From: Candidatus Buchananbacteria bacterium
GTDB lineage: Bacteria > Patescibacteriota > Patescibacteriia > 2-01-FULL-39-33
Assembly: GCA_030650095.1 (NCBI GenBank)
Contig: JAUSEE010000002.1
Span: forward strand, 6,711-70,710
Direction: 5' to 3'
Length of the DNA: 64,000 bases
Positions 219 through 61,332 of the stretch are shown piece by piece. Under the pieces are notes generated by a model that searched no databases, was not told where the DNA came from, and saw nothing but the letters and a program-made list of their open reading frames with translations. How positions within the stretch are numbered: the stretch's first letter is position 1; each line of letters starts with the position of its first letter. Position numbers and translations under genes: made by a program.

Positions 219-1052
219 TTAAACGGCGGCGTCTTTGAGCGAGGCTTTTTTGAGATCTTCGTAAATGCCGCCTTTAATGTTGATTCGGCCAAAAGCCAAA
301 AAGAATAAGCTCAAGGAAGCGTAAAAGAAAAAGTGACTCAAATACATCACCTGGTGAAGCGGAAAATTAAGATTGGACTCTAGAAACTCGTAAAAAATAT
401 ATGGCACAGTCGAGAGCATGATCATAATAATGGAAGCATGCAATAATCTGGTGAAGCCAGTTGAGATGGACACATGTTTGCCAATTCGGTTTATTTTCAT
501 CATGGCTATCAAACCTAGTAAAAAGATTATGGCTGTGTAGACATAAGGTGTTGGATTATCCAATTCCAGCGACATCAATTCTCTTTTGGTTGTTAAGACG
601 AAAATTAAGACAATCAAAGCGGCAATTAAGCCGATCAGAACATTAATCTGAATCAACGATCGTCTATCGTGAACTCTAAGGAAGGCATCAGCGCCGATTA
701 TTATCAGCATCAGGCTTATTAGATAGAAATTGGCGGTATTGATAAGGACAGAATCAGAATAATAGACAAAAGCACCCATGCTCATACTGAAATATTCAAC
801 AATATGCGAAAGGGCAAAAACAAACAGAGCGGCCAAACTGGCCATGAAGAATTTTTCTAGGATGGGATCAAAAGAATAATAGCGGACAAAAATCCTTATT
901 ATAGACAAGGCGATAAACAAAATAGCGATCATATGTATAATTCCGTACATAAAAAACAATTGACCGGTAAGCTCGGCTATGAGGATAACCGCTAAATTGA
1001 TGGCTATGAGTACCAAGGGACTAAAAATTTTTTCAATTTTTTCTTTGTTCAT
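219..1052 (-). CDS. Polytopic integral membrane protein, function unknown
   Basis: 277-aa ORF with ~8 hydrophobic helices; no recognisable catalytic motif. Confidence 0.45.
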   Translation of the reverse strand: MNKEKIEKIFSPLVLIAINLAVILIAELTGQLFFMYGIIHMIAILFIALSIIRIFVRYYSFDPILEKFFMASLAALFVFALSHIVEYFSMSMGAFVYYSDSVLINTANFYLISLMLIIIGADAFLRVHDRRSLIQINVLIGLIAALIVLIFVLTTKRELMSLELDNPTPYVYTAIIFLLGLIAMMKINRIGKHVSISTGFTRLLHASIIMIMLSTVPYIFYEFLESNLNFPLHQVMYLSHFFFYASLSLFFLAFGRINIKGGIYEDLKKASLKDAAV

Positions 1053-3821: not shown

Positions 3822-6185
3822 ATGGGGGATAATTCAAATAACTGGCTCGGTTCCGAGGCCAGTGTTTTAGAATCTAATAAAGTTGCCAAAATAAGGAAAA
3901 GAGACGGCCGAATTGTTGATTTTAATAAGGATAAGATAAAACAGGCCATTATTAAGGCCTTTACCGCCTCCAATAATTATGATTATGAACTGGTAGACAG
4001 GCTGGTTGTGAGTGTGGTTAACATTTTAAACAACCGCTACGGGCTAGAAAACATACCTTCTATCGAAGATATCCAGAATATCGTAGAAATCATCCTGATT
4101 CATAACGATCTGCCGGCGGTAGCCAAAAATTACATTATTTACCGTGAAGAAAGATCCAAATCGCGTGAAAGGCAAAAGGCTATTTTAGACGGTTTAACCA
4201 CCAGCTTGCCTTATTCTGATAACGCCCTGAAGGTTATGGCCAAAAGGTATTTAAAAAGGGATCAGGATGACAAAGTTATTGAAACTCCCGAGCAAATGAT
4301 GGAACGGGTATCCCTGGCTTTGGCGGAAGTGGAGAAGAAATACGGCAAAAATGACGAGCAAGTGGCGCGAGTGAAAGACAGTTTTTATGAGGTTTTAAGC
4401 AAATTTGAGTTTACCCCGGCCGGACGAACCCTAAACAACGCCGGCACCGATTTACCGGTGGTGGCCAATTGCATTGTCTTAAATATCCAAGATTCCATGG
4501 ACAGTATTTTTGATACCCTCAAAGACGCCGCTCTTTTACAGCAGTCCGGCTCCGGCTTGGGCTTTCCTTTCCACACCCTAAGGCCGGCCGGTTCTCGGGC
4601 CAAAAAATCACGCGGGGTGGCTTCCGGGCCGGTTTCTTTTCTGAAAGTCTATGATCGGGCCTTTGGCGTGATAAAACAGCAGAATCGCCACGGCGCCAAT
4701 ATGGCAGTGATGAATGTGGAGCATCCGGATATTTTGGAGTTTATCCATTGCAAAGCCCGGGAAGGCGAGATTAAGAATTTTAATATTTCTGTGGGCTTAA
4801 CCGATAGGTTTATGGAAGCGGTGGAAAAAAACGATCCCAACACTTGGGTGCCGCGCTTCAACGGCCAGGATCATTCCTTGCACAGAGTGGTACGCGATGA
4901 GCAGGACACTATTTTGGACATCGTGGAAGAAAAAATGACCGCTCGCGAGATTTTTCAAGAAATCATTTCGGCCGCTTGGTCCAACGGCGAGCCGGGCTGT
5001 GTTTTCTTGGACACGGTGAACAAGGTTAACCCTTTGCCGGGCTTGGGCCGGATAGAAGCCTGCAACCCCTGCGGTGAGCAATTCTTGCACGATGGCGATG
5101 TCTGTAATTTGGGTTCTATTAATTTGGAAAAATTTGCTAGTAGCGGCGAAGTGTTGTGGGACAGATTGAAAGAAGTTACCAAAATAGCCGTGCGCATGCT
5201 GGACAATGTCACCGATATCACTAAGTACCAATCAGAAAAAGTAAATCAGGTTTCCAAAGACAATCGGCGTATCGGCTTGGGCATCATGGGCTTTGCCGAC
5301 ATGCTTTATAAACTGGGCATTGGCTACAACACGCCCGAAGGCTTTGCTATGGGCGAAAAAATAATGAAAACCATCCAGGATTCCTCTCACCAGATGTCTC
5401 AAGAATTAGCCGACGAAAAAGGACTCTTTAAAAATTATAATCATTCCGTTTACCCAGGCAGGAATGTCAGAATGAGAAATGCCGCCCTCACCAATATCGC
5501 CCCGACCGGCACGATTTCCATGACCATGGATGTCTCGGGCGGAGTGGAGCCTTATTTTGCCTTGGCCTATTATTACAAACATGTTTTGGGAGGCGATGTG
5601 GAGCTTATTTATTTCAACAAGCATTTGGAAAAAACCTTAAAGGAACAAGGCTGTTGGTCGGAAACAGTTAAACAGCAAATAATCCAAAACGGCACCCTGC
5701 AGAATGTGGCCGGCATTCCGGAAAATATCAAAAAAATATTCGTTACTTCCATGGATATTTCCGCCTCCGATCATATTAAAATGCAATCGGCGTTCCAAAA
5801 ATATTGCGACAACGCTATTTCTAAAACTGTTAACTTCCCTTATTCGGCCAGCAAAAATGACGTGATGGAAGGCTACCTGATGGCTTGGAGAATGGGTTGC
5901 AAGGGCTGTACTGTTTATCGCGACGGCTCCAGGGACAAGCAAATACTCAATATCGCCAAAGACAAAGAAACCAGCGAACCCTTAAACCCCAACGCCGGTT
6001 TAACCGATGAAATGCCCATGGTTAATACCGGCAATGTGGTTACTTCCGGCTTTAGTCCTCTTAAGCCTAATGATAAAAATGGAGTCATAGCCGGCGGAAT
6101 TTGTCCGGAATGCGGGGGATCGCTTATGATTTTAGAAGGTTGTTATACTTGCTCCAGTTGCGGAGTTAGCGCCTGCTCTATTTAA
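3822..6185 (+). CDS. nrdJ: Adenosylcobalamin-dependent (class II) ribonucleotide reductase with N-terminal ATP-cone and C-terminal Zn-ribbon
   Basis: ATP-cone VAKIRKRDGRIVDFNKDKIKQAI; RNR core with active-site Cys in CNLGSINL and a second conserved Cys in EACNPCGEQ; C-terminal CPECGG...CYTCSSCG. Confidence 0.9.
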   Translation: MGDNSNNWLGSEASVLESNKVAKIRKRDGRIVDFNKDKIKQAIIKAFTASNNYDYELVDRLVVSVVNILNNRYGLENIPSIEDIQNIVEIILIHNDLPAVAKNYIIYREERSKSRERQKAILDGLTTSLPYSDNALKVMAKRYLKRDQDDKVIETPEQMMERVSLALAEVEKKYGKNDEQVARVKDSFYEVLSKFEFTPAGRTLNNAGTDLPVVANCIVLNIQDSMDSIFDTLKDAALLQQSGSGLGFPFHTLRPAGSRAKKSRGVASGPVSFLKVYDRAFGVIKQQNRHGANMAVMNVEHPDILEFIHCKAREGEIKNFNISVGLTDRFMEAVEKNDPNTWVPRFNGQDHSLHRVVRDEQDTILDIVEEKMTAREIFQEIISAAWSNGEPGCVFLDTVNKVNPLPGLGRIEACNPCGEQFLHDGDVCNLGSINLEKFASSGEVLWDRLKEVTKIAVRMLDNVTDITKYQSEKVNQVSKDNRRIGLGIMGFADMLYKLGIGYNTPEGFAMGEKIMKTIQDSSHQMSQELADEKGLFKNYNHSVYPGRNVRMRNAALTNIAPTGTISMTMDVSGGVEPYFALAYYYKHVLGGDVELIYFNKHLEKTLKEQGCWSETVKQQIIQNGTLQNVAGIPENIKKIFVTSMDISASDHIKMQSAFQKYCDNAISKTVNFPYSASKNDVMEGYLMAWRMGCKGCTVYRDGSRDKQILNIAKDKETSEPLNPNAGLTDEMPMVNTGNVVTSGFSPLKPNDKNGVIAGGICPECGGSLMILEGCYTCSSCGVSACSI

Positions 6186-6196
6186 GTGTCACTTTG

Positions 6197-6268
6197 ATCC
6201 GCCCTGGGCGGAGAAGCAATCTCGTGTTTGATATTTGTCATTCCGACCGCAGTGGAGGAATCCCTTGG
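6197..6268 (+). repeat. Family-1 element, degenerate copy 3
   Basis: gatccgccctgggcgga gaagcaatc ... tgtcattccgaccgcagtggaggaatccc; shares 'tccgccctgggcggagaagcaatc' with the copy at 10220. Confidence 0.45.
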
Positions 6269-6299
6269 TAAAATAAAATAAATCCAGTCTATTAAAATA

Positions 6300-6480
6300 A
6301 AACACCCTTTTCTTTTTCTAGGAAAAAGAAAAGCGGTGCCAAAAGAAAAAGTCGCGAGCTGGTTAAAAATTAAGGCAAAATTTCAGCTCGCTCACTAAAG
6401 CCAATAATCCAAATAGCAACATAATATTGGCTTTTTAACGCTCGCTAAACTGAAATTTTGACACTAAATTTTTAAAGGCT
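6300..6480 (+). repeat. Conserved ~170-nt module A (structured-RNA candidate) downstream of family-1 copy 3
   Basis: Perfect 12-bp hairpin cttttctttttc-tag-gaaaaagaaaag (6307-6333) then a block homologous to 35596-35760 (agctcgct..aaagcYaataatcMaaatagcaacaKaatattRgctTtttaacRctcgct...). Confidence 0.55.
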
Positions 6481-6510
6481 CGCATTATTTTATATTAGAT
6501 TATTAATACT

Positions 6511-7026
6511 ATGATCCAAGTTTATTATGGCGATGGTAAAGGCAAAACCACGGCGGCCCTGGGATTATCCATAAGAGCTTTAGGTAGCGGCCAGAAAGTA
6601 GCCATTATCTTTTTTGACAAAGGGGGCCAGAATTATAACGAAAGGAAGATATTGGATAATCTGGGCATCGCTTATTTTTCCTATGGCCGAGACAGGCGTC
6701 TGTCTAATAACCGGTTTGATTTTTCACTTAAAGACGAAGATTTGGCGATGGCGCAAAAATCCATGGCCCAGCTTCTTAAAATACACCATGATTACGACTT
6801 GATTGTTTTAGACGAAGTTTTAAACGCCATCAGGCTGAAGATGATGCCGCTTCAAGAATTGTTGGATTATTTGGACAATAAATTGCCGCCCAATTTAGAA
6901 CTGGTTTTAACCGGCCGCGGCTTGTGGCCGGAAATAAGTGAAAGGGCCGATTTGATTTCTGAAATGAAAATGATCAAGCATTATTTTCAAAAAAAATTGC
7001 CGGCCCGAGAGGGGATAGAATACTAA
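6511..7026 (+). CDS. cobO: Cob(I)alamin adenosyltransferase, CobA/CobO/BtuR family
   Basis: P-loop VYYGDGKGKTTAALGLSIRALG diagnostic of CobA_CobO_BtuR; 171 aa. Confidence 0.8.
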   Translation: MIQVYYGDGKGKTTAALGLSIRALGSGQKVAIIFFDKGGQNYNERKILDNLGIAYFSYGRDRRLSNNRFDFSLKDEDLAMAQKSMAQLLKIHHDYDLIVLDEVLNAIRLKMMPLQELLDYLDNKLPPNLELVLTGRGLWPEISERADLISEMKMIKHYFQKKLPAREGIEY

Positions 7027-7123: not shown

Positions 7124-9043
7124 ATGGCTGGAAAAGTATCTAAAAACAGGCACTTATCAAACAATCCTAACAAGGCCGAAGTTTTTAAGTTGATTGAAAA
7201 AGAAAGGGATCATGTTTTTAATTTGATCAGTGACATTATTATTGTCGCCGATGCCAAAACTGGCATGTTAGTGGACGCTAATTTGGCCGCTCAAAAATTT
7301 TTGGGCAAAACTCTAAGCCAAATAAGGAAAATGCACCAGTCTCAGCTTCATAATAGAGCAGACCGGGCTAAATATCGTGAATCATTCAGGCAAATTGTTA
7401 AAACAGGAGGTGTCCAGGAAGATGTTTATATCTTAAATAAAAACCGAGAGCCAGTTCCTACTGATGTCAGCGCCGGTTTCATTAAAACTGGCGGGCGTGA
7501 TTATATCCAAGGAGTTTTTAGGGATGTCAGCCGCCGGAAGAAAATAGAAGAAGAATTAATCGGGCAAAAGATTAAATTTGAAACCATCTTTGATCTGTCG
7601 CCCAATTTTATTATTTATAAAAGCCAGGATGACAAATTTTTGGAAGTCAATAAAGCCTTTGTTGATTTTATCGGCCTGCCCAAAGAAAAGATTATCGGCC
7701 AATCAACCTTTGATATGATTCTAGACCAAGAGGTGGCCCAAAAAACCAGACAAGACGATTTGGAAGTTATGAAAACGGGCCGGCCAAAATTTGGCGTGAT
7801 TAGGAAATTTACCAGCCCGTTTAGCCAAAAGAGCATCTGGGGCATGTATTCTAAAGAAGCGTTTTTAGATGCCGATGGCAAGGTAATAGGCATTTTATCG
7901 GTTACCGCTGATATTACCAAGATGGTAGAATCAGAAAAAGAAATTGAACTGCAAAAAGATTTGGCTTTTGAAAGATCAGAAAAGTTGCAGGCCATTTTAG
8001 AGAATATCGGTGACTTCGTTTTTGTGATTGATCACAATTATAAAATTACCATGGTTAATAAATCAGCCTGCCAACTAGTTGGTTGTTCCTATAATCAAGC
8101 TATAGGCAAATACTATGGCGATTTTTTTAAATTTGTCTATGAGAAAAATCAGCAAGTTAATGACCAGTTTATAAAAAATGCTTTAGAAAAAGGGGTAGTG
8201 GCATCAGTGGCCAACCACACCGTTTTAATTACCAAAGACAATAAAGCCATGCCGGTTGATTTTGTGGCTTCGCCTATTAAAGATGAAAATGGCCAAATAA
8301 CCGGCGCCGTGGTTGTTTTTAGGGATATAACCAGGGAAAGAAACATAGATAGAATGAAAACAGAATTCGTTTCCATTGCTTCCCACCAGCTTAGAACGCC
8401 CTTAACCGGCATCAAATGGTTTTTGGAATTGCTATTGGATCAAAAAATAGGCGCTTTAAATGAAAAACAACTGGATTTTCTAAACCAAGTGGCGCAAAGC
8501 AACGAAAGAATGATATCGCTCGTGAGTGATCTTTTAAGCGTGTCCAGGATTGAAACAGGAGGAAAAAAGTTTGAAATCGTCAAAAGAAATATCAATATTA
8601 TCCCGGTGATCAAGAGCATTATTATGGATAATATTGTTTTAACCAAAGAGAAAAATATAAAAATAACTGGTTGTATTTATAAATTGTCCAAAATAATGAT
8701 TTTTGCCGATCCCGAACATATCAGGCAAGCCTTTCAAAACTTAATCACCAATGCCATAAAATATTCCAATAATAATGGCGTCATTGAAATTAATTGCCAA
8801 TATAAGAATAAAGAAATAATATTTTTTATCAAAGATAAAGGCGTGGGCATACCGCCAGATCAGCAAAAAAGGGTTTTTGAAAAATTTTTCCGGGCGGACA
8901 ATATTATTACTAAAGAAACCAGCGGCACCGGTTTGGGCCTTTATATCGCTAAAGCCATAATTGACGGCCATGGCGGCCGGATTTGGTTTAAGTCTAAAGA
9001 AGGCAAGGGCACGACCTTTTATTTCTCTATTCCCAAGAAATGA
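7124..9043 (+). CDS. Cytoplasmic multi-PAS sensor histidine kinase
   Basis: PAS-like repeats, H-box SHQLRTPLTGIKWFLELL, C-terminal HATPase_c (GTGLGLYIAKAII). Confidence 0.85.
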   Translation: MAGKVSKNRHLSNNPNKAEVFKLIEKERDHVFNLISDIIIVADAKTGMLVDANLAAQKFLGKTLSQIRKMHQSQLHNRADRAKYRESFRQIVKTGGVQEDVYILNKNREPVPTDVSAGFIKTGGRDYIQGVFRDVSRRKKIEEELIGQKIKFETIFDLSPNFIIYKSQDDKFLEVNKAFVDFIGLPKEKIIGQSTFDMILDQEVAQKTRQDDLEVMKTGRPKFGVIRKFTSPFSQKSIWGMYSKEAFLDADGKVIGILSVTADITKMVESEKEIELQKDLAFERSEKLQAILENIGDFVFVIDHNYKITMVNKSACQLVGCSYNQAIGKYYGDFFKFVYEKNQQVNDQFIKNALEKGVVASVANHTVLITKDNKAMPVDFVASPIKDENGQITGAVVVFRDITRERNIDRMKTEFVSIASHQLRTPLTGIKWFLELLLDQKIGALNEKQLDFLNQVAQSNERMISLVSDLLSVSRIETGGKKFEIVKRNINIIPVIKSIIMDNIVLTKEKNIKITGCIYKLSKIMIFADPEHIRQAFQNLITNAIKYSNNNGVIEINCQYKNKEIIFFIKDKGVGIPPDQQKRVFEKFFRADNIITKETSGTGLGLYIAKAIIDGHGGRIWFKSKEGKGTTFYFSIPKK

Positions 9044-9072
9044 TATTTAGAATAGTTGTAGATAATAAAAAT

Positions 9073-9216
9073 GTCATTGCGAGCCTGCCTGTCGGTAGAC
9101 AGGCTTGCGAAGCAATCCCACGGCTGTAGGATACGAGATTGCTTCTCCGCCTTCGCGAGGACTCGCTTGAGCTTCCTCGCAATGACAAGAATAAAGAGCT
9201 CATTCACAATGACATT
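9073..9216 (+). repeat. Family-1 nested-palindrome element, copy 4 (extended)
   Basis: gtcattgcgag + extra hairpin cctgcctgtcggtagacaggc + gaagcaatcc..gatacgag attgcttc ... ctcgcaatgac, then a second ...caatgaca. Confidence 0.75.
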
Positions 9217-9224
9217 TAGAAAAT

Positions 9225-9524
9225 ATGACTAAATATTATTATATTTATATTCTAACCAATAAACATAATAGAGTATTATATATAGGTGTAACCAATAATT
9301 TAATCAAAAGAGTTTGGGAGCATAAAAATAAAATAAATAACAATTCATCTTTTACTAGAAGATATAATATTGATAAATTAGTCTATTATGAATAGAGTGA
9401 ATCAGTCCATAATGCTATTGCTAGAGAAAAACAGTTAAAAGGAGGATCTAGAAAACAAAAGGTAGATTTGATAAATACTTTAAATCCGGAGTGGAAAGAT
9501 CTTTATATAGAAATGACAAAATAG
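9225..9524 (+). pseudogene. Small GIY-YIG nuclease family gene with an in-frame TAG (nonsense-disrupted)
   Basis: Frame translation MTKYYYIYILTNKHNRVLYIGVTNNLIKRVWEHKNKINNNSSFTRRYNIDKLVYYE*SESVHNAIAREKQLKGGSRKQKVDLINTLNPEWKDLYIEMTK; GIY...YIG...R...E...N layout of the short COG2827-type proteins; TAG at 9393-9395. Confidence 0.7.
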
Positions 9525-9544
9525 TGCCATTATTAGGCCTTACT

Positions 9545-9643
9545 GTCATTGCGAGCCTGCCTGTCGGCAGACAGGCTTGTGAAGCAATCCTATGGTTGTA
9601 GGATACGAGATTGCTTCGGTCGCTGTGGCTCCCTCGCAATGAC
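9545..9643 (+). repeat. Family-1 nested-palindrome element, copy 5
   Basis: gtcattgcgag cctgcctgtcggcagacaggcttgt gaagcaatcc tatggttgtaggatacgag attgcttc ggtcgctgtggctcc ctcgcaatgac. Confidence 0.75.
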
Positions 9644-9672
9644 AAGTAGAATCACTATAAATAGCAAAAGTC

Positions 9673-9718
9673 GTCATTGCGAGCCTGCCTGTCGGCAGAC
9701 AGGCTTGTGAAGCAATCC
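9673..9718 (+). repeat. Family-1 element, 5' half only (copy 6)
   Basis: Identical to the first 46 nt of copy 5, truncated 27 nt before the receiver gene start. Confidence 0.65.
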
Positions 9719-9744
9719 ATATTTATTAATTAAAATATAACATC

Positions 9745-10113
9745 ATGAAGAAAAAGATATTAATAGTGGAAGATGACAATTTTTTACAAAAAGCCCTGGG
9801 GCATGCCTTGTTAGAGAATGATTTCGATATTATTTCGGCTGTAAGCGGCGAGCAAGCAGTTCCCTTGGCTAAAAACGCTAAACCGGATTTGATTCTACTG
9901 GATATAATTTTGCCCAAAAAAGACGGTTTCGTGATAATGGAGGAATTAAAAAATGATTCGGCCATAGCTTCCATACCGGTAATATTTATCACTAATCTGG
10001 GGCAGAAGGAGGATGTTAAAAAAGGCTTGGATTTGGGAGCAAAAGGTTATATTATCAAAGCTCATTTTAAGATAGCTGATATTATTGATAAGATAAATGA
10101 AGTTTTAAAATAA
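9745..10113 (+). CDS. Single-domain response regulator (receiver only, CheY-like)
   Basis: ILIVEDD...LILLDIILPKKDGF...KGYIIK; no output domain. Confidence 0.85.
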   Translation: MKKKILIVEDDNFLQKALGHALLENDFDIISAVSGEQAVPLAKNAKPDLILLDIILPKKDGFVIMEELKNDSAIASIPVIFITNLGQKEDVKKGLDLGAKGYIIKAHFKIADIIDKINEVLK

Positions 10114-10130
10114 TAATCACATAATCATAA

Positions 10131-10250
10131 AATACGAGATTGCTTCGTTGCACTTTGTTTCGCTCGCAATGACAAGGATATAGAACTCCCTCGCAATGAC
10201 AGGAAAGAACGTCATTGCGATCCGCCCTGGGCGGAGAAGCAATCCCATGG
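10131..10250 (+). repeat. Family-1 element fragments (3' half + 5' half, rearranged; copy 7)
   Basis: aatacgag attgcttc ... ctcgcaatgac ... ctcgcaatgac ... gtcattgcga tccgccctgggcgga gaagcaatccc. Confidence 0.6.
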
Positions 10251-10286
10251 TTATAAAGCACTTACTATTAATGCAATTATAAGTAT

Positions 10287-10661
10287 ATGAAAAAAATTTT
10301 AGTCATAGAAGACGACAATATACTGCAAAGCGCTATCTCTACTGCTCTAAAAGATGCCGGTTTTAGCACGGTTCAATCTTTTGACGGCGTAGACGGATTA
10401 AAAAAAGCCAAGAAAAACAATATCAATTTAATTTTATTGGATTTACTTATGCCCAAAAAAGACGGCTGGGAAGTTTTAAAAATGCTTAAAAAAGATAATA
10501 AAACCAAGAATATTCCGGTTTTTGTCTTAACAGTTTATGAGGGCGAGAACAGCATTTCTAAGTGTTTGTCTTTGGGCGCCAAAGGTTATTTTATCAAATC
10601 AAAATATTCGCTGGATGAAATAATAAAAAATATAAAAAATGAAATTGGCAAGGCTAAATAA
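10287..10661 (+). CDS. Single-domain response regulator (receiver only)
   Basis: ILVIEDDN...LILLDLLMPKKDGW...KGYFIK. Confidence 0.85.
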   Translation: MKKILVIEDDNILQSAISTALKDAGFSTVQSFDGVDGLKKAKKNNINLILLDLLMPKKDGWEVLKMLKKDNKTKNIPVFVLTVYEGENSISKCLSLGAKGYFIKSKYSLDEIIKNIKNEIGKAK

Positions 10662-10671
10662 ATAATCAGAT

Positions 10672-10706
10672 AATAAGACGGCTTAGACTAGCCGTCTTAT
10701 TTAATA
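10672..10706 (+). terminator. Rho-independent terminator
   Basis: taagacggct taga ctagccgtctta followed by tttaatatt. Confidence 0.55.
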
Positions 10707-10808
10707 TTAGCTGTTTGGTTTATTTTTTAAATAAGTGTTATAATAATAAAAGAACATAACAAAAATTGCATAATAAAAATTAGAAATTAATTAAATATTT
10801 GTTTTAAT

Positions 10809-11465
10809 TTGATAATTTTTATGTTTAGAAAATATTTCATTATTTTAACCGTTTATTTAATCGGTTTGGCTTCTTTGGCGATCATAGTGGCTTGGATTTT
10901 TGATATTACTGTGGTTTTATCTATTTTGCCTGGCTTTATCACTATAAAATTCAGTACCGCCTTAGCTTTCTTTTTAAGCTCGCTTATCTTGTATTTTGCT
11001 TATTATTCCCCTCAAGGCAGGTTTGCCAATCTGAATTTAATTATTGTTTCATTTTCCATCTTAATTATTTGGATTATGATGATAACAATTTTAGTTTCTA
11101 TTATTTTTGGTTTCAAAAGCGGTATAGAAAATTTGTTTATTATTGATACAACCATAGCTACTAACCCCTATGTACCCGGGAGACCATCACTAGGCACTAT
11201 AGTCGCTTTTTTACTCATTACCATTTTAGGCCTTAATATTTTTTACGAAGGAAAGTGGAAAAATCAGCTATTTTTATTTCTTGGATCTTTAGTGTTTCTA
11301 ATCGGAGCAGTGTCTAAGATCGGCCTAATATTGGCCGTGCCTGTTTTGTATTATGACGTTCCTTCTATTAGCAATGCTATTTCCATACCGGCCAGCATTC
11401 TTTTTATGTTTATCGGGCTGGCCTTTTCTCTGCTTTATAAAATAAATCCCAAACGCCAAGCATGA
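10809..11465 (+). CDS. Polytopic membrane protein translationally coupled to the downstream histidine kinase
   Basis: 218 aa, ~6 TM helices; its stop overlaps the HK start (ATGA at 11462-11465). Confidence 0.5.
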   Translation: MIIFMFRKYFIILTVYLIGLASLAIIVAWIFDITVVLSILPGFITIKFSTALAFFLSSLILYFAYYSPQGRFANLNLIIVSFSILIIWIMMITILVSIIFGFKSGIENLFIIDTTIATNPYVPGRPSLGTIVAFLLITILGLNIFYEGKWKNQLFLFLGSLVFLIGAVSKIGLILAVPVLYYDVPSISNAISIPASILFMFIGLAFSLLYKINPKRQA

Positions 11466-16253: not shown

Positions 16254-19200
16254 ATGTCTGAAAGATGGCTCAATTTATTTTTAAAGCTCTCCGGTTTCAT
16301 CTTTAATACCAAACAGAAAGTGGTGAAGGCTGATAATTGGGTGATGGTTATTCCTCATGTTTTGGTTATTATAGTTTTTGAGCTGGGTTTTGCCATTATT
16401 TCTTTGCCCATGTATCTGATTGTTTCTCCTAAGGCAGTCCAGGAAAGAGGCTTTATTTTTCCCATGGGGGAAGGGGAAAAAAGCGACAAAAAAGATGTGA
16501 TTCGCGTTTATACTGCCAGAAGGAGAATCAGCCTAACTACCGGGGCTGGCGCCGGCACATTTTTTGTTTTAAAAATTTTGCTTATTGTTTTTACTTCGCT
16601 TTATCTTTTGGGCGCTCAAAAACTGTTGGCTGCTACCCAGGATTGGACTTTTGACACGGCCGGCGATTACACCTATGACAGCGCCAAAATAGAGGTGACT
16701 GGCGGCGTAGGACGGTTAAAAAATATCGGCAGCGCTACTTCCGGCTCTACCACCAATTCTGCTTTTACCAGTGACGCTACCGATTGGACTTATGCCGATT
16801 GGCTTAATAACGCTGGCGCTAGCGGGGCTTATTCTTCCACTGGCGGCAATACCGGAGGCAATGTGCAAATTACTTTAAGTTCGGCAAAAAATAAAACCAC
16901 TGCCGGTTTGTATAGGCAGTCATTTACGACAACTGTTGATTCTCCGGATACAGCCACTTTGAATTTGGATTGGTCATCAATCAGCTATTCGGTGCCGGCC
17001 CCCTTTGATACTTACCAGCTTTACGCTTTTATTGATACGGCCAGTGGCGATCCGACATTGGGACAGCAGGTCTGGAGCAGCGGTGAAATTACCGGCACGA
17101 CCGCTTGGGCGAGCAGCGCCACCATTGATATTACCAGTAAGGTTCCAACTGCTGACACTTATTACTTAAAAATCGTCGCTTATCATGATACGCCCGGCAC
17201 TACTGGCACATACACTACTGTAGCCGGTTTTGATAATGTGGTTGTTAATTGGTCTAAAACCACCGTGCTTTATGCTTCTGATAGGCCAACTATTAATCCA
17301 ACCACTTCCTTGAGTAATGAATTTGTAACTACTTGGGATTCCTTTACTGAAACAGCCACCAAAAACGGCGGTGAAATCTATTATCAATTATCCAATGATG
17401 ACGGCGCAACTTGGCAATATTGGAACGGCAGCGCCTGGGCGACAGCCGGAGCCAGCAATTACAACACCGGCTCGGTTATAAATACCAATATAAGCACTTT
17501 CGGCGTTACCAACCATAAAATAAGGTGGAAAGCATATTTAGAAAGCAACGGCAGCCAACAGGTCATACTTGATAATGTCAATATCGGTTATACCGAAAAC
17601 GATCCGACTCATGTCCAAAACTTATCCCCAGCGCAAAACACCACTTCCGGCTTAATGCATGTTAATTATGAATTAAAGGATGATCAAAGCGATCCGGCTT
17701 CGCTGGTGGTTTACGAATATTCTTTAACCGGCGCCTTTAGTGGTGAACAAACAACTATGACTGCTTCCACTACTGATGCCAGCCATAATGGCGTGTCCGG
17801 ACTCTCCAGTTCGCCGACCGGTGTGGCTCATACCTTTGTCTGGGACGCTCAAACTCAAATCGGCGCTATTTATGATGCATCTGTTTATGTTCGGTTGCGG
17901 GGTAGTGACGGCATCAATGTCGGTGATCATACCACTTCTACCGCTTTCGCCGTGGATTATGTGGTGCCGGTAGTTACAAATGTCAGCGCTTCTCAAGTGT
18001 CTGGTTCTACTAATGTCACTATAACTTATGATTTAGCCGATGATACTTCGGATAATTTGTTGGTGGAATTAGGTATTTCCAATGATGGCGGTAGCACCTG
18101 GGTAGTGCCGACAGTTACTGCTTCCGGACATGTCGGTTCCGGAGTGACAGCCGGCACCGGCAAATCCATTACTTGGAATGCCGGCACTGATTATGATGAG
18201 CACCAGCAGAGCACTATGCAAGTTAGAGTGAGAGCTAAAGATAAATATCAAAACCAAGGTTCTTATGCTTCTTCGGCTAATTTCACTTTAGACACTTTAA
18301 ACCCGGTTACCAATGCCACCTCTAATTTACAGGCCCAGCCTAATGCCGGAGATACCACGGTTTCCATTAGCGGTTCCTTTACCGAAGCTAATCCTAATAC
18401 TAATGATTTTTATGCGGCTCTAAATGGCGGAGCTTACTCTTCGGCTACAGCCGGCGCATCTGATACGGTAACGCCCGGCACTCAATCAACAGCGGTGGGC
18501 GTCACTTTGGACGGCAATGATTATATCTCCGGCGTCAAAATCACCCACACTGATGATTTCGGCCAAGCGACTGATAACGAAAACACTTCTCCTAATACGG
18601 CTTACAAATACGTTAAGCCTTACACTCCGCAAGCTCCGACCTTGGATAATCCGGTAACCACCAGATTGGACTTAACTATTAATCCGCATGCTTCAGAAAC
18701 TAGTGGTTTAGATTATTTAATTCAAGAAACCACCAGCGGCAATTATGTCCAGGCTGACGGCACTTTGGGCGCCAGCGAGGTTTGGCAGGTAATGGGCACC
18801 GGCAGCGGACAGTGGGGCAATAACACCAGCGTTAGCGGCAAAGTAAGAATTACTGGTTTAAGCTCACCGGTGGCTAATTATATTTTTAAAGTCAAATCAA
18901 GAAATAATAGTGATACTGCTCATGCCGCATCTTCTGAATCAGCTTTCTCCTCTACCGCTCAAATTACCAATACCGCGCCTTCCATCGCCTTGGGCAGCGT
19001 GGCGCAAACCACCGATGGCACGCGTTATGTGCCTGTAAATTATACCGGCACAGACGGCCAAGGTGATTTAAATGATATAACCGTTTATGAATATTCCACT
19101 GATAATTCCGCTTGGAACACGATGACGGAAAAGAGCGGTGTCGGTTCTGAGGGCTTGGCTGATTTGGTTTTCTTATCCGGCGGCAGCGCTCATAATTTTG

Positions 19201-22200
19201 TCTGGGATTCCGGCACGGATTTGCCCAGTGTGGAAGATGACACGGTTTATGTGAGGTTAAGATCAACCGATACTTTAACTAACAGCGCTCTGTCGGCTTC
19301 CTCGGCTTTTGTTATTGATAATGTCAATCCGGTAGTTTCCAGCGTAACAGCTTCGCAAGATGCCAGCGCCAGGACTGTGACCATCGGCTATACTTTAACC
19401 GATCATAATAATTCCACAGTGGAATTGGATATTTCCGAAGACGGCGGTAGTACTTGGACTGTTACCGACAGTAGTGTAACCGGCGATGTGGGAGCTGGCA
19501 TAACTCCGGGAGCCGGTAAGTCAATCACTTGGAATGCCGGCACTGATTTTGACGATCAGTATCAAACCGATTTACAAGTTAGGATTAGGGCTACCGATAC
19601 CAAAGGCAATGTTAGCGACTGGGCCCAATCGGCTAATTTTACTCTAGACACCAAAGATCCGGTAGTCTCCAGTGTAACGGCCTCACAAGATAGCGGAGCC
19701 AAAACATTTGTTTTCCATTATGATGTTTCCGAAGATTTGGGCAATGTGACTGTAGTTTTGGCCATTTCCAGTAACAGCGGCAGTACTTATGTTGTGCCAA
19801 TTACTTCGGCTAGCGGAGATACGGGAGCTGGCATAACTTCCGGCACGGGCAAAACTATAACTTGGGATGCCGGCGCTGATTACGACGGTTTTGAAGAAAC
19901 CGACATGAAGATTAAAATAACCGCTACTGATCAATTTACCAATAGCAGCAATAACACCTCGGCTGATTTTTCACTTGATAGTTTAGCCCCCAGAGTTACC
20001 AGCGTTAGCGCCACGCAAAACAGCGGCGCCACCACAGTGGCTATAACCTATACTTTAGCCGATCAAAATAATTCAAATATTGAAATAGATATTTCCGAAG
20101 ATGGCGGCAGCACCTGGGCGGTAACCGACACCAGCGTAACCGGCGATGTGGGAGCCGGTGTGGGAGCCGGCAGTAAGACCATCACTTGGAATGCCGGCGC
20201 TGATTTTGACGAACAACAACAAAGCGATATTAGGGTGCGGGTGAGGGGAACAGATATTTATGCCAATGCCAGCGCCAATATGAGCTCATCTAATTTTTCT
20301 TTGGATACTAAAAACCCGGCAGTTAACGTGGCGGTTGATCTTTTGGCCCAGCCTAATGCCGGCGACAGCACGGTTTTAATCGGCGGTTCGTTTACTGAGG
20401 CCAATCCTAATACCAATAATTTTTATGTGGCTATAAATGGCACATTTTACGGCTCAGCCACAGCCGGCACTTCTAATACTGCCAGCCCCTCAAATCAGGC
20501 TACAGACGTGGGGACAACTTTAGACGGCAGTGATTATATCTCTCAAGTAAAAATCACTCATACCGATGATTTTGGCCAAACAGTTGATAATGAAGACACT
20601 AGTCCTAATTCAGCCTATGTTTATGTCAAACCATATACTCCTCAAGTTCCGACAGTTAATAATCCCACTGTTGGCACAGTTGATGTTTTAATCAACCCCC
20701 ATGCTTCAGAAGTATCCGGTTTGCAATACGCTATTTATGAAACATCCCAAGGCAAATATGTCCAAGCTGATGGCACTTTGGGCGCCTCGGCTGTTTGGCA
20801 GATAATGGGTACGGCTAGTGGCCAGTGGGGCAATAACACCAGTGTCAGCGGCAAAGTCAGGGTAAACGGCTTAACCGTTGATTCTTATCTTTACGCTTTC
20901 CAGGTAAAATCCAGAAATTCTTCCGATGATCTTCATGCTACTGCCAGTGAAAGCGCTTTCTCGTCTTCCGCTTCCTCTGTCAATCAATCGCCGTCAATCA
21001 GCATTACCTCTGTTTCTCAAACAACCGACGGCACCAAATATGTCACTATCAATTACACCGGCACTGATTTAGAGGGTGAAGCCAGCAGTTTAATTTCCTA
21101 CCAATATTCAACCAATAATAGCACTTGGTTTACCATGACCGAAAAAGCCGGTGTTGGCTCTGATGGCACCAGCGCTTTAACTTTCTCTTCTTCCGGCACC
21201 ACTCATGATTTTATGTGGGACGTGGGAGCTGATTTGGATAACACCGAAGACACCACGGTCTATGTGAGGTTAAGGGCCAATGATGGCACTTCCAGCGGCA
21301 ATATTGAAACTTCCAGCGCTTTTACTGTTGATACCAAAAATCCGGTTATATCTTCGGCTACCGGCACGCAGGTTGCCAGCTCTAATAATGTCACCTTAGG
21401 CTACACTTTAACTGATTTGTCCAGCGCTAATATAGAAATTGATATTTCCGAAGATGGCGGATCAAATTGGACAGTTACCGATACCAGCGTGACCGGCGAT
21501 ATCGGCTCGGGTATAACACCGGGCTCGGGCAAAGCGATTACCTGGAATGCCGGCGCTGATTTTGACGGCCAGGAACAAAGCGATATTAGATTCCGAGCCA
21601 GAGGCACGGATACTTATGGCAATCAAGGTTCTTATGCTTCCTCGGCTAATTTTTCCTTAGATACCAAAGATCCGGCAGTTTCTAATGTGAGCGCGTCTCA
21701 AAACTCCGGCGCTTCTACTATTGCTATAACTTACGATTTATCAGATGCTAATAATTCAACTGTAGAAATTGATATATCTTCAGATGGCGGCAGCACTTGG
21801 ACGGTAGGCGACAGTAGCGTGACCGGTGATGTGGGAGCAGGCGTAACTCCGGGAGCCGGCCAAACAATCACCTGGGATGCCGGCACTGATTTCTCCAGTC
21901 AAGATCAGACCGATATCAGGGTGAGAGTAAGAGCCACTGATATTTACAGCAATGCCAGCTCCAATGTGGAATCAGCTAATTTTTCTCTGGATACTTTGGG
22001 ACCTAGTATTTCCAGCGTGACGGCCAGCCAAACCAGCGGAGGCGATAATGTGGTTATAAATTATAATTTAACTGATAACAGCGCCGTTAATGTGGCCATA
22101 GATATTTCCGAAGACGGCGGATCAACCTGGACAGTAACCGATACCAGCGTGACCGGCGATGTGGGAGCAGGCGTTTCCCAAGGTTCCGGCAAAGCTATCA

Positions 22201-25200
22201 CTTGGAATGCCGGCGCTGATTTTGACAACCAAGATCAATCTGATCTAAGAGTCAGGGTTAGGGGAACTGATGCTTATACTAATTCCAGCGGTAATATAGA
22301 ATCGGCTAATTTCTCTTTGGATACCAAAGATCCGGCTACTAACTCTACAGCTAATTTAATCTCTCAACCAAACGCCGGTGATACTACTGTTTCTGTCGGC
22401 GGTTCATTTACAGAAACTAGTCCTAATACCAATGATTTCTATATGGCTCTAAATGGCGGAGCTTATGGCGCCTCAACTGCCGGCACTTCCAATAGCGCCT
22501 CGCCAACCAATCAAGCTACGGCTGCTGGCGCTACCCTAGACGGCAATGATTATGTTTCCAAAGTTAAAATTACCCATACTGATGATTTCGGCCATATTTT
22601 TGACAATGAAAATACCAGCCCGAATACATCTTACAAATATGTTAAGCCTTACACCCCACCGACACCGACAGTTAATAATCCTCAAAATACTTCAGCTGAT
22701 GTGACAATTGATAAAAATGCCTCGGAAACCAGCGGTTTGGAATATGCTATTTATGAAAATTCCACCGGACAATATGTCCAGGCTAATGGCACTTTAGGCG
22801 CTTCCGCTGTCTGGAGGCAAATTGGTACTGGTGCGGGAGAGTGGGGCGTATCTTCCGGCGTGAGCGGCAAAATAACAGTTAGCGGACTAACTTCACCGGT
22901 GGCCCAATATAATTTCCAGGTCAAATCCAGAAATACTTCTGACACATTAAACGCTTCTTCCAGCGAAAGCAGTTTGTCGGCCAGCGCCAGCATCACCAAC
23001 ACCTCGCCGGTTGTAGCTATCTCCAGTGTTGCCCAACAAACGGGCGGAGTTAATTATGTGAGCATAGATTATACCGGCACCGATGCTCAAAACGATACCA
23101 ACGATTTAAATATTTTTGAATATTCAACCGATAATTCCACTTGGTCTTCTATGACAGAAAAAGCCGGCGTCGGCTCGGACGGCACCAGTGATTTAATCTT
23201 TACTTCAGCCGGAGCCAGCTTTAATTTTGCCTGGGATTCGGCCGCTGATTTGCCCAACACGGAAGATTCAACTGTTTATATTAGACTACGTTCCACCGAC
23301 AGTTTAGCCAACAGCAATTTGGCCGCGTCCTCGGCTTTTGATATTGATAATTTAGGGCCGATAATTTCCAATGTTTCCGTTAGTCAGACGCCCAGCACCG
23401 GCAATATAGTTATAAACTATGACTTAAATGATAATACTACGGCCAATAATGCCATCACCATAGACATTTCCGAAGATGGCGGCAGCACTTGGACGGTAAC
23501 CGATACCAGCGTAACCGGTAGTGTGGGAGCCAGTATTTCTGCCGGTAGTGGAAAATCTATCACTTGGAATGCCGGCGCTGATTTTGACAATGAAGAGCAA
23601 AGCGATATGAAGGTTAGAATAAGAGGCACTGATTCTTACGGCAATGTGGGCAGTTATCAGCCGTCGTCAGACTTTTCTTTAGATACTAACAATCCGGTTG
23701 TTTCGGCAGTTAGCGCTTCACAAGGCGTTGGCAGTTCTGATGTGACGATAAATTATACTTTAACTGATGGTACGAGCGCCGGTCATTTGGTAGAAATAGG
23801 CTTATCCAGTGATGGCGGAGTCAATTGGAATGTCGCCACTTCCAGCGTTAGCGGCCATGTCGGCTCGGGCCAAACAACCGGTTCTAAATCGTTCACTTGG
23901 GAGGCGGGCACCGATTTTAGCAGTGAAGAGCAATCAGATATGAGGGTTAGGATTAGATCAACGGATTATTATGGCAATGTCAGCAGTTATGCCAGTTCGG
24001 CTAATTTCTCTTTAGATACAGCTAGTCCGACTATTTCCAATTTAGCCGCCAGCCAAACGGCCGGTGGCAGTAATGTCGCTATTGATTATGATTTGGCTGA
24101 TACCAGCGCCTCTAATTTAACTCTGGAAATTGATATCTCCGATAATGGCGGCAGCACCTGGACAGTTACCGACACCAGCTCCACCGGTAATATCGGCGCC
24201 AGCCAAACAACCGGCTTAAATAAAGCTATCACTTGGGCAGCCGGCACTGATTTAACCAATCAGGAGCAAAACGATATCAGAGTGCGACTGCGAGCCACAG
24301 ATACCTATGGCAATATCAGCAGCTACTTTGAATCATCTGATTTTGCGGTTGATACGGCCGGCCCGATAGGTCTTAGCGCTTTGTCTAAATTCTCTTCTAC
24401 TGATACCACCATTACTTTAAACTGGTCGTCAGCTGTAACTGATGCCAACTTTGACCATTATGAAATCTGGCATGGCTCAAACGCCAGTGATGTTGATGGC
24501 AGATCGGGCACGGCTGCTAATTGGGATCAAACAGATGATGCCAATTTAACTAATATTAATACGATTTCTACGGTTGTTACCGGTCTTAATGTAACTGGTA
24601 ATTATTATATGAAGATTTGGGCTGTTGATGATTATGGCAATGAAGTAACTATAGCTGCCATTAATGTCTTTGAAGCTCCGGCAACTCCAGAAGCTACAGT
24701 CACGCCAACCGGCGGAGGAGCCCCGGCAGAAATATTAACTCCGGATTTAGTGCCTCCGGCTTCACCTATTTTAAGCTCGGTTAATAGTCCGACCAATTCT
24801 ACTAATATTAGTATATCCGGCTTGGCTGAACCTCGATCCGTTGTGGACTTATACGATAATAATCAATTAATCGGACGCTTAATTTCGTTAACCAGTGGCA
24901 ATGGGCAATTTGAACAGAATTTCGCCTTTACTGAGGGCTCGCACGTCTTGACCGCCCGAGCTACTGATGCCGCCGGCAATGCCAGCGCCTTATCGGATCA
25001 ATTGATTTTAATAATTGATCAAACTCCGCCGGCTGCTCCGATTGTCTTGGTGCCTGATAATAATTCGGAAGTGAGTGACGCCACGCCTCAAATTATCGGC
25101 GTCAGTGAACCGCTAGCTGCTATTACCGTTTTAATTGATAATACCACCTCGCTTACTACCTTGGCCGATAATAACGGCGCTTGGAATTTGATTTTGCCCT

Positions 25201-35468: not shown

Positions 35469-35535
35469 GTCATTGCGAGGGACGAAGCAATCCCAGGCGA
35501 TATAAACATAAGATTGCTTCGTACCTCGCAATGAC
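35469..35535 (+). repeat. Family-1 nested-palindrome element, minimal copy 8
   Basis: gtcattgcgag ggac gaagcaatcc caggcgatataaacataag attgcttc gta cctcgcaatgac. Confidence 0.7.
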
Positions 35536-35559: not shown

Positions 35560-35760
35560 ACATTCCTCTTGTTACTTTTGGTCCGCCAAAAGTAACCAAA
35601 AACTCGCGAACGTAAAAAATCATGGCCAATTATTACATAAGCTCGCTAAAGCTAATAATCAAAATAGCAACAGAATATTAGCTTCTTAACACTCGCTTTA
35701 TGTAAAATTGGCACAATATTTTTTAATGTTCGCCTTATTTTATTAAAAATCTATAAATAA
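35560..35760 (+). repeat. Conserved ~170-nt module B (structured-RNA candidate) downstream of family-1 copy 8
   Basis: 10-bp hairpin ttacttttgg-tccg-ccaaaagtaa (35572-35595) then a block homologous to 6340-6480, including hairpin agctaata..tattagct versus agccaata..tattggct in module A. Confidence 0.55.
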
Positions 35761-35793
35761 AATAGCGCGGCAATTTGCCGCGCTTTATTTTTA
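35761..35793. terminator. Bidirectional rho-independent terminator
   Basis: agcgcggcaatttgccgcgct flanked by A-run and T-run; sits between module B (+) and the dCMP deaminase gene (-). Confidence 0.5.
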
Positions 35794-56495: not shown

Positions 56496-57341
56496 TTAAA
56501 AGATGTAGCGAACTCCTTGCTCTGCCCAACCGGCAAAACCAGTTATATCTTGTTCTGGCCAGGTATCAGCATAATGCATTAAATACATTTTGGCTTTAAT
56601 TTTGTCTGGCAAGGTTTTTAAATCATTCAAGGGAGCGTGGACGGCGCCTGGAAAAAATTGCACATCATGGAACATCACTTCTGATCTGTCGCCATAGAGA
56701 TCAATCAGTTCCGGATCAAATTGCGTATCGCCGGAAATAAATACATTATCGTCGATAAATAAGCCAAAGCTGACAAAGGCAGTTTGCCAGTCATGGGATT
56801 GGGCCGGGTAGTGATTGGTGCGGAAAATCTCTAAATGTATGCCCTTAAAATCCAGTTCAAATATTTCCCGTGGCTGGAAGGTTTTCCAGACAGGCCTGGT
56901 GACATCGAAATAATCGCCGAAAACCAGATTTTTACCGCCTTCTTCCTCGTTGTATTCCATGCCTCCTCTAAGAGTGTAGTCCCACAAAATACGCTGGTAT
57001 TCTTCGCCGATAATCATCTTGATTATCGGCTTTTTAAGAAAAGGGATGCCAAGGTAGCGATTTTTTAGGCCCAAACATTCTATGCCGCCGACATGGTCGG
57101 CATGGGAATGGGTGGGCAGAACCACTTCGACGTCTTCGGGCAAATGCTGGGCTGTCTGAAGTAGCGCCGCCGGGCCGGTCATGCCGAAATCAACCATAAT
57201 ATGAGTGTCGCCTTTGATGATTAGAAAATTAGTCTGATGTAAGGTGGTGGCAAAGGCTGCGCCTACGCCGATAAAAAATACTTCCAATTGTCCGTCATTT
57301 CTAAGGCTTAGTGGTTTATCTCCTAAAGTCTTGATTTGCAT
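56496..57341 (-). CDS. MBL-fold metallo-hydrolase
   Basis: HSHADHVGG metal-binding motif. Confidence 0.7.
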   Translation of the reverse strand: MQIKTLGDKPLSLRNDGQLEVFFIGVGAAFATTLHQTNFLIIKGDTHIMVDFGMTGPAALLQTAQHLPEDVEVVLPTHSHADHVGGIECLGLKNRYLGIPFLKKPIIKMIIGEEYQRILWDYTLRGGMEYNEEEGGKNLVFGDYFDVTRPVWKTFQPREIFELDFKGIHLEIFRTNHYPAQSHDWQTAFVSFGLFIDDNVFISGDTQFDPELIDLYGDRSEVMFHDVQFFPGAVHAPLNDLKTLPDKIKAKMYLMHYADTWPEQDITGFAGWAEQGVRYIF

Positions 57342-60576: not shown

Positions 60577-61332
60577 TTATTTAATAACTACGATCCCGTC
60601 AGAATTGGCTATTTTATCATTTATTAAATTAGTGGTTATACCGGTATTGGTTTTAATTATAATTTTTTGGCTGATTGAGTCTAAAGCGGTAACTTTTATG
60701 CCATTTAATAATTCGGCAACCGATCCGGCTTGATTAGCGCTAGGCGTTAGGGCGACTTCAAAAGCCAGACCAATAGGCTGGTTGGCATCAGTTAAAAGTA
60801 ATCTATCTAAAGCCCAATTAATTTGTCTGGAATTGTTATTAAAATACATATTTTCTCCATGAGTAACGATTGATTTGCCGGTTAAAGAAACATTTTCCGG
60901 CAACTGGGCTGACACTAAAACATTTTTCAAATCATGAGTAAACTCGTCTAAACTGATGAATATCCAGTATTTGGTAATGGCACCGATTTTTGGCGGCAGC
61001 GGCCCCAGGCCTAATTGCTCGCCTTCGGCCGTGTAATATCTGGCCAGTGATTGCAGTTTTATGTCAGTTGATTTTATAATCACCGGCTCGTTTTCTTCAA
61101 CTTGGTTGTCAGTGTTGGTATCAGTATTTATATTTTGGTTGCTGTTTTGATTGTTAGCATTACTGTCAATTCCCAGCACCGCGCCGTAATTGCCGGTTGA
61201 CAAATAAGCGTTAATAATTATTAAAGCCAAGATAAAAACAGACAAAAGGCCATCTATGGTTAAATGCCAATATCTATTTTTATTGTCTTTATGATAATGC
61301 TTGTTCCAGCGTTTTTTAAAAAAGTTTTCCAT
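60577..61332 (-). CDS. Hypothetical secreted/membrane-anchored protein
   Basis: 251 aa, N-terminal TM, Asn/Gln-rich linker; no motif. Confidence 0.35.
   Translation of the reverse strand: MENFFKKRWNKHYHKDNKNRYWHLTIDGLLSVFILALIIINAYLSTGNYGAVLGIDSNANNQNSNQNINTDTNTDNQVEENEPVIIKSTDIKLQSLARYYTAEGEQLGLGPLPPKIGAITKYWIFISLDEFTHDLKNVLVSAQLPENVSLTGKSIVTHGENMYFNNNSRQINWALDRLLLTDANQPIGLAFEVALTPSANQAGSVAELLNGIKVTALDSISQKIIIKTNTGITTNLINDKIANSDGIVVIK

Follow-up and report, generated by a model that had tools for sequence, protein, structure and literature searches.

The DNA analysed, referred to throughout as the window, is a 64-kb stretch from a Candidatus Buchananbacteria MAG, a member of the CPR. Two of its gene spacers carry a copy of a non-coding module of about 190 nt. 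Module A separates nrdJ, encoding a B12-dependent ribonucleotide reductase, from cobO, encoding a corrinoid adenosyltransferase; the gene pair spans positions 3822-7026, and 17 nt separate the end of the module from the cobO start codon. Module B is flanked by a HIT gene and an intrinsic terminator, with a convergent dCMP-deaminase gene beyond. The unit is built from four parts, namely a small hairpin (hairpin-1), an A-rich linker, a GC-clamped extended hairpin of about 130 nt and a U-rich tail. These parts and the features adjoining them are as follows.

6197-6265, a divergent or rearranged variant of the family-1 repeat, neighbour of module A and outside it
6307-6493, module A, in the spacer between nrdJ and cobO
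6307-6333, plus strand, hairpin-1 of module A, 12 bp, CTTTTCTTTTTC-TAG-GAAAAAGAAAAG, loop TAG
6334-6353, plus strand, A-rich linker of module A, CGGTGCCAAAAGAAAAAGTC, a U-tract when read on the opposite strand
6354-6483, plus strand, extended hairpin of module A, comprising P1 (GCGAGC/GCTCGC), an A/T-rich P2, P3, an internal loop, P4 and an apical loop
6484-6493, plus strand, U-rich tail of module A, ATTATTTTAT
35469-35535, a family-1 palindromic repeat, upstream neighbour of module B and outside it
35572-35743, module B, in the spacer between the HIT gene and the terminator
35572-35595, plus strand, hairpin-1 of module B, 10 bp, TTACTTTTGG-TCCG-CCAAAAGTAA, loop TCCG
35596-35605, plus strand, A-rich linker of module B
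35606-35733, plus strand, extended hairpin of module B, with P1 GCGAAC/GTTCGC and TCGCT on both sides of the internal loop
35734-35743, plus strand, U-rich tail of module B, CTTATTTTAT
35764-35793, bidirectional intrinsic terminator, common to the HIT gene (plus strand) and the dCMP-deaminase gene (minus strand), outside module B

In module A the internal loop likewise has TCGCT on both sides, at 6388-6392 and 6442-6446, and P4 (6397-6406/6426-6435) leads into the apical loop. The extended hairpin has the ends GCGAGC...GCTCGC-ATTATTTT. In both copies hairpin-1 stands outside the inverted repeat and on one side only, so the element is asymmetric.

Elsewhere the window holds a giant ORF of 3190 residues (16254-25826, plus strand), whose orthologue in a relative, of 3179 residues, matches Big_13. 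A metallo-beta-lactamase-fold protein of 281 residues (56496-57341, minus strand) matches PF23023, the Anti-Pycsar protein Apyc1, with 98.7 bits against a cut-off of 50; this Apyc1-like gene has a chromosomal context, beside a type IV pilus cluster at 48.5-56.4 kb.

The family-1 repeats are palindromic, of the form GTCATTGCGAG...CGAAGCAATCC...CTCGCAATGAC, and are far commoner than the module. In the window they occupy about 113-193, 1136-1236, 6197-6265, 9073-9186, 9545-9643, 9673 to about 9760, 10130-10250 and 35469-35535. Among the loci collected from related genomes, which carry L numbers, they occur in L010 (9750-9960), L014 (9812-9915), L021, L024 (1-70) and L026 (9800-9985), and their copy numbers in the same spacers differ between related genomes. 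The region 9043-10809, 1.7 kb with no ORF of at least 130 residues and with at least four family-1 copies, looks like a hotspot for repeat insertion, and short-read (Logan) assemblies break exactly at family-1 repeats.

A sequence-only reading of the window had placed a family-1 element upstream of each module. This is correct for module B. The neighbour of module A at 6197-6265 is only a divergent or rearranged variant, sharing 26 nt with 10219-10244 together with short pieces of other family-1 copies. A 5' fragment of the module proposed at 285-330 is a 12-nt A-rich exact match with an E value of 1.6 inside an ORF (219-1052, minus strand), and we attribute it to chance.

The same reading described a module of about 170 nt in two copies, one after nrdJ and one after the HIT gene, and their homology is confirmed: blastn aligns 6338-6493 of A with 35585-35743 of B at 75.3% identity over 162 nt (E 2e-24). 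Overall divergence is 24-25%, with 37 substitutions in 153 aligned positions, and the flanks share no homology outside the element. No third copy was found by blastn in the 64-kb window; a weak match at 61130-61162 falls inside an Asn-rich, low-complexity ORF and was set aside as chance. An 8-bp stem with a C:G to T:A double change, reported at the outset, is real (alignment columns 66/93) and constitutes the tip of the extended hairpin. Folding of the whole module gives z-scores of -6.9 for A and -9.7 for B, and RNAalifold identifies four compensatory pairs even on an A/B alignment made from sequence only.

Could the pair be a plain segmental duplication decaying neutrally, its hairpin the remnant of an ancestral palindrome? 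Two copies only in the window, at this overall divergence, would fit. When one copy is randomly mutated to the observed divergence the expected MFE is -20 to -22 ± 5 kcal/mol, a loss of half the fold energy. Against this stand observed values of -40 and -42 kcal/mol, and the value of the other copy was reached in one of 500 and none of 500 simulations, a p of about 0.002 or less. The observed MFE is far below the expectation for a mutated copy; the structure is therefore maintained and not decaying. The flanks without homology beyond the element, two-sided changes far above the shuffled expectation and further copies at other sites in other genomes also count against neutral duplication, which we regard as very improbable. 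The recent segmental duplication that the sequence-only reading had named as its own counter-case is rejected on three grounds, simulation, covariation and further copies, and its view that this is no passively decaying duplicate is upheld by the agreement of the simulation with two-sided changes at 17 of 31 pairs over four copies.

The further copies came from a covariance model. A first version, built from A and B only with 31 pairs, searched the window together with 16 loci (294 kb) and retrieved copy C; a model that included C then retrieved copy D.

L018 7943-7782, copy C, 49.9 bits, E 1e-7, with the model built from A and B only
L028 3958-4109, copy D, 74.2 bits, E 5e-13
L028 about 4160-4120, fragment E, the 3' end of a C-type copy, CCAAATTTTTCATATGCTCGATTTTATTTTAT

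The family thus totals four full copies and one fragment in three genomes, two of the copies and the fragment being in two related Ca. Buchananbacteria. Copy C is located between a gene of 714 residues and the HIT gene, a spacer of only 13 nt in the window. Copy D occupies the same convergent spacer as B in the opposite orientation; it is identical in L029 and L031 and is severed by the contig end in L030. Fragment E and copy D are arranged tail to tail, and a family-1-like end (gatcgcaatgac) immediately adjoins the fragment, an arrangement that suggests nested or competing insertions. A four-sequence model gave no further copies in 309 kb of Buchananbacteria DNA. Two scans of viral sequence with arm patterns common to B and D yielded 26 loci (225 kb) and no covariance-model match among them, and BLAST against plasmid and phage collections gave no match to the module. 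The A/B loop pattern TAATCNAAATAGCAACANAATA had one match in genome, six in metagenome and none in viral contigs, all lacking flanking similarity and all judged to be chance; the pattern is a poor search anchor because the loop is conserved in neither C nor D. Copy number is low: the 64 kb contain two, and about 40 kb from the genome of one relative (L013 and L023) contain none.

Copies C and D fold into the same architecture as A and B, with z-scores of -5.3 and -6.8. The A-rich linker is present in all four copies, as is the U-rich tail (ATTATTTTAT, CTTATTTTAT, AATTATTTTGT and ATTATTTATTAT), and A, B and D all keep a TCGCT to either side of the internal loop. In copy D hairpin-1 reads CCCTTTCTTTTC-TAG-GAAAAGAAAGGG and is clearly homologous to that of A, and hairpin-1 of B resembles that of C (CCTTTTGG..CAAAAGG). 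Hairpin-1 is therefore part of the element of about 190 nt. The hairpins upstream of A and B had been described as unrelated in sequence; they exist, and they are homologous element parts, that of A being like that of D.

The additional copies bear directly on the fold, since substitutions breaking the stems at random had been named as the observation that would count against it. The stems are not so broken: 98.3% of cells in the four-copy alignment pair and 17 of the 31 pairs have changed on both sides, with the caveat that these covariation counts come from an alignment fitted to the model and that several are A:U to U:A flips in low-complexity A/T runs. None of 500 shuffles reached this number of two-sided changes, and slid controls pair at 37-50%. 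The level of pairing together with the two-sided changes leads us to conclude that the hairpin is under constraint. Alignments based on the covariance model were used because a four-way alignment of the arms with MAFFT was disturbed by indels. G-U pairs occupy only 2 of 121 cells, and roughly half of the double changes are transversion-type, neither of which is specifically indicative of RNA.

Relationships among the copies are mosaic. Identity in the arms is 73% between A and B and 80-85% between B and D; in the centre it is 80% between A and B and 51% between B and D; similarity in hairpin-1 groups A with D. Exchange between copies of a repeat family would explain the pattern. The apical loop, which in A and B is more conserved than the stems (80% as against 73%), is replaced in C by a CCGCCCTGGG-type mini-palindrome and is different again in D; copy exchange can account, without selection, for its conservation in A and B. 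The mini-palindrome of C (L018 about 7880-7855) is GC-rich, CCCACCCAGGGCGGG, the reverse complement of CCCGCCCTGGGTGGG, and is nearly identical to the CCGCCCTGGGCGG motif in family-1 variants at 6199-6211 and 10219-10244 of the window. The TCGCT direct repeats were also considered as a helically phased DNA-binding signal, a proposal rejected because their spacing of 54, 50 and 47 nt is not constant.

Both gene pairs flanking A and B are syntenic in relatives, which allows comparison of the orthologous spacers. The pairing of nrdJ with cobO is kept in all relatives examined, and the spacer between them varies from 3 to 355 nt with the repeats inserted. It lacks the module in four other lineages (L010-12, L013, L014-17 and L026-27). 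Identities below are those of cobO to the window.

L010-12, 85%, spacer with two family-1 repeats
L013, 81%, spacer of 3 nt
L014-17, 78%, spacer with one family-1 repeat
L024, 86%, contig beginning inside the spacer, the 121 nt upstream of cobO having a family-1 repeat and no module
L026-27, 82%, spacer of 355 nt with other repeats

The spacer between the HIT and deaminase genes contains the bidirectional terminator alone in L018-20 and L023, and family-1 with other sequence in L021-22; the L025 contig stops 48 nt past the deaminase stop codon and so gives little information. In L021 a tandem-like short run, gtgctttagtgttttcagtgttttagtgctttggcgtttt, lies between the family-1 copy and the terminator (about 10560-10620, minus strand). 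L018, L023 and L028 have the orthologous terminator and no module B, which makes the terminator ancestral to the spacer and not a part of module B. The terminator after module B (35764-35793), pointed out in the sequence-only reading, is genuine.

No direct repeat of the kind expected for a target-site duplication flanks A, B, C or D, and comparison of filled with empty sites gave no sharp insertion boundary. The "empty" spacer upstream of HIT in L021 (11173-11227, minus strand) has ATTATTTTAT followed by AT-rich sequence like the tail and right flank of C; the likeness may mark a footprint or a preferred target, or be due to chance in low-complexity sequence.

The position of module A, ending just upstream of cobO and between two cobalamin-related genes, raises the thought of a B12-related cis-regulatory leader, a riboswitch or attenuator controlling the ATP:corrinoid adenosyltransferase. 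The genes beside copies B, C and D are unrelated (HIT, dCMP deaminase), no relative examined has the module in this spacer, which in one of them is only 3 nt long, and a search of the window and L028 with Rfam 15 gave no gathering-level match to the cobalamin riboswitch or any other family. With the orthologous sites empty and the other copies in unrelated surroundings, the proposal is effectively refuted, and we hold it to be scarcely credible.

Is the module instead an independently transcribed, structured sRNA, a family whose paralogous genes relocate or duplicate between spacers and whose hairpin and UCGCU motifs are bound by protein? In favour are the strong covariation with few broken pairs, fold z-scores of -5 to -10, the apical loops of A and B that exceed the stems in conservation, and the TCGCT pair at the internal loop of A, B and D. 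The strand opposite to that on which the module was first described folds better by 4-12 kcal/mol, with more G-U pairs, in all four copies, which hints at a preferred RNA strand. Against this, the apical loop is replaced in C and different in D, and its similarity in A and B is explicable by copy exchange given the mosaic pattern. G-U cells are the mere 2 of 121 noted above, the orthologous sites in the relatives examined lack the module, and in A and B the two DNA strands are about equal in folding and form very few G-U pairs.

Searches for the attributes of an RNA gene were also negative. No sigma-70-like promoter flanks either end of A or B. No terminator of its own is conserved across the copies, the one extra terminator-like site being on the minus strand after A. 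Extending the Rfam search to an E value of 10 gave sub-threshold matches only, mostly of miRNA-precursor models to hairpins, and none to 6S RNA. No ORF is common to the four copies on either strand. A sigma-54 promoter was rejected on reading the sequence, TGGCAC in B and D being TGACAC in A. An attC site was similarly dismissed, as the hairpin bases (GCGAGC-TGGTTAAAAATT... and GCGAAC-GTAAAAAAT...) read without conserved, properly oriented AAC/GTT boxes of the R''(RYYYAAC) and R'(GTTRRRY) type and the module copies are not in a cassette array.

Compensatory change had been taken to argue for RNA in the sequence-only reading. Mobile REPIN hairpins are documented to undergo such changes commonly (PMC3116915), and because mobile DNA hairpins show the same signature, compensatory changes between two copies alone do not prove an RNA gene. 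With no promoter, own terminator, synteny or Rfam match, and with both strands folding, the one opposite to that assumed being the better in all four copies, the dedicated sRNA gene that it had offered as one option is not supported, and we consider an independently transcribed sRNA family unlikely.

A different proposal is that the module is a cis-acting mRNA element of benefit to the host, whether as a terminator or insulator working in both directions or as a hairpin for RNase III processing or stabilization, kept for tuning its neighbouring genes, as it might by separating the expression of cobO from that of nrdJ, or of HIT from that of the gene upstream. The layout of A-tract, GC-rich stem base and U-tract is found on both strands in all four copies, on a stem of about 60 bp with internal loops, for which reason a terminator consensus scanner does not call it. 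The reverse strand reads GAC-UUUUU-C-UUUU or similar. Copies B and D share with SPRITE elements (PMC3184786) a location between convergent genes, A and C have the same orientation as the operons that they interrupt, and the duplexes are long enough for RNase III, as are those of Correia elements (PMC2649163). Several observations weigh on the other side. Copies B and D adjoin a perfectly good canonical terminator and would therefore be redundant as terminators, the sense-strand U-tract is interrupted (AUUAUUUU), and relatives manage these operons without the element, with only 3-13 nt between the genes. Such a beneficial role appears decidedly unlikely to us.

The explanation that we consider probable is that the module is a low-copy, dispersed, non-coding mobile palindromic repeat of the MITE, REPIN or SPRITE kind, with a terminator-like layout, in the Buchananbacteria clade. 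The family has spread among the gene spacers of a few related groundwater CPR bacteria. The copies are non-syntenic, the orthologous sites are empty, both orientations occur within one spacer, one copy is truncated, the relationships are mosaic and the copies co-localize with other repeats in variable spacers of fast turnover; together these fit such a repeat. The sequence-only reading had offered a structured RNA or part of a mobile element, and it is the mobile half that is better supported, given the differing spacers and orientations in related genomes and the empty orthologous sites. The module is neither a syntenically conserved sRNA gene nor a regulator of nrdJ or cobO.

The composite with family-1 that had been envisaged is not supported, given that C and D lack an upstream family-1 element and that family-1 occurs in the same spacers of relatives free of the module. 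Only two of the four copies follow family-1, and since C and D do not, the link is not obligatory.

Why would a mobile repeat keep its hairpin? The element may have to fold when single-stranded, the ssDNA form being recognized by a mobilizing enzyme supplied in trans; alternatively it may fold as RNA when co-transcribed with its neighbours. Among the window ORFs of at least 130 residues, 30 of about 50 were searched with Pfam and none is a transposase, RAYT or IS200-like gene. The A-tract, GC clamp and U-tract on both strands suggest, from the sequence, that the effect on the host may be that of a bidirectional terminator-like or transcript-end hairpin, and RNase III might use the long duplex as a substrate in whichever 3'UTR or intercistronic RNA the element has entered.

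Mobility of this kind is not supported by every observation. Neither a target-site duplication nor a sharp boundary was found, the scanned ORFs include no mobilizing gene, copy number is low and the one-sided hairpin-1 is unlike a MITE bounded by TIRs. The conserved TCGCT pair and the A/B apical loop could reflect sequence-specific recognition of a functional RNA, and a genuine structured RNA function is in our estimation rather unlikely. Distinctly speculative is the idea of a new class of CPR mobile structured RNA, a self-propagating module of about 190 nt under selection at the RNA level, its paired UCGCU bound by a dimeric protein encoded by host or element, and perhaps functioning either in trans, as an RNA made from the better-folding strand, or as a bidirectional, portable signal for termination or processing. 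A true portable terminator or protein-bound RNA would be of moderate interest for gene regulation in the CPR.

Small mobile palindromic repeats are hardly described in the reduced genomes of CPR bacteria, and our search of the literature on CPR MITEs and on the family-1 core sequence found nothing relevant. The module and family-1 indicate that Buchananbacteria spacers turn over fast, that hairpin insertion repeatedly splits operons, nrdJ-cobO among them, and that short-read assemblies break at these repeats.

Several known systems invite comparison. With 6S and other rod-like sRNAs the module shares an extended rod, a large internal loop and the possibility of two paralogous copies per genome. 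It is shorter (about 130 nt), has no Rfam match to 6S even at the E value of 10, and lacks synteny and its own promoter or terminator, being absent from these sites in close relatives. As in the terminal inverted repeats of a classical MITE, the two arms of every copy are complementary, starting at P1 and proceeding inward, and the copies are dispersed and variable in presence, at four combinations of spacer position and orientation in three genomes; the module differs in having no target-site duplication that could be found and in placing hairpin-1 outside the inverted repeat.

ERIC and Correia elements are imperfect palindromes of about 104-157 bp, a similar size class, and are also intergenic with a presence that varies between related genomes. 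Co-transcribed with their neighbours, they fold into RNA hairpins that influence how RNase E or RNase III processes the mRNA (PMC3184786, PMC2649163). They differ in having defined TIRs, TA target duplications and high copy number, and the module carries the extra 5' hairpin outside the inverted repeat. [quoted passage not shown] The module hairpin is several times longer than a terminator stem, two of its copies interrupt operons and there is no sequence relationship.

REPINs consist of two GC-rich REP sequences of about 20-25 nt, each with a small palindrome, and occur in tens to hundreds of copies, flanking a RAYT gene. The module differs in its A/T-rich arms with a GC clamp of only 6 bp, its low copy number and the lack of RAYT in the scanned ORFs; inspection of the arms by eye showed neither REP-like sub-palindromes nor a GTAG/CGTC tag. 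The likeness lies elsewhere. Both are non-coding, extragenic, asymmetric and dispersed, both fold into one long hairpin in ssDNA or mRNA, and in both the spacer sequence is free to vary provided that pairing is kept.
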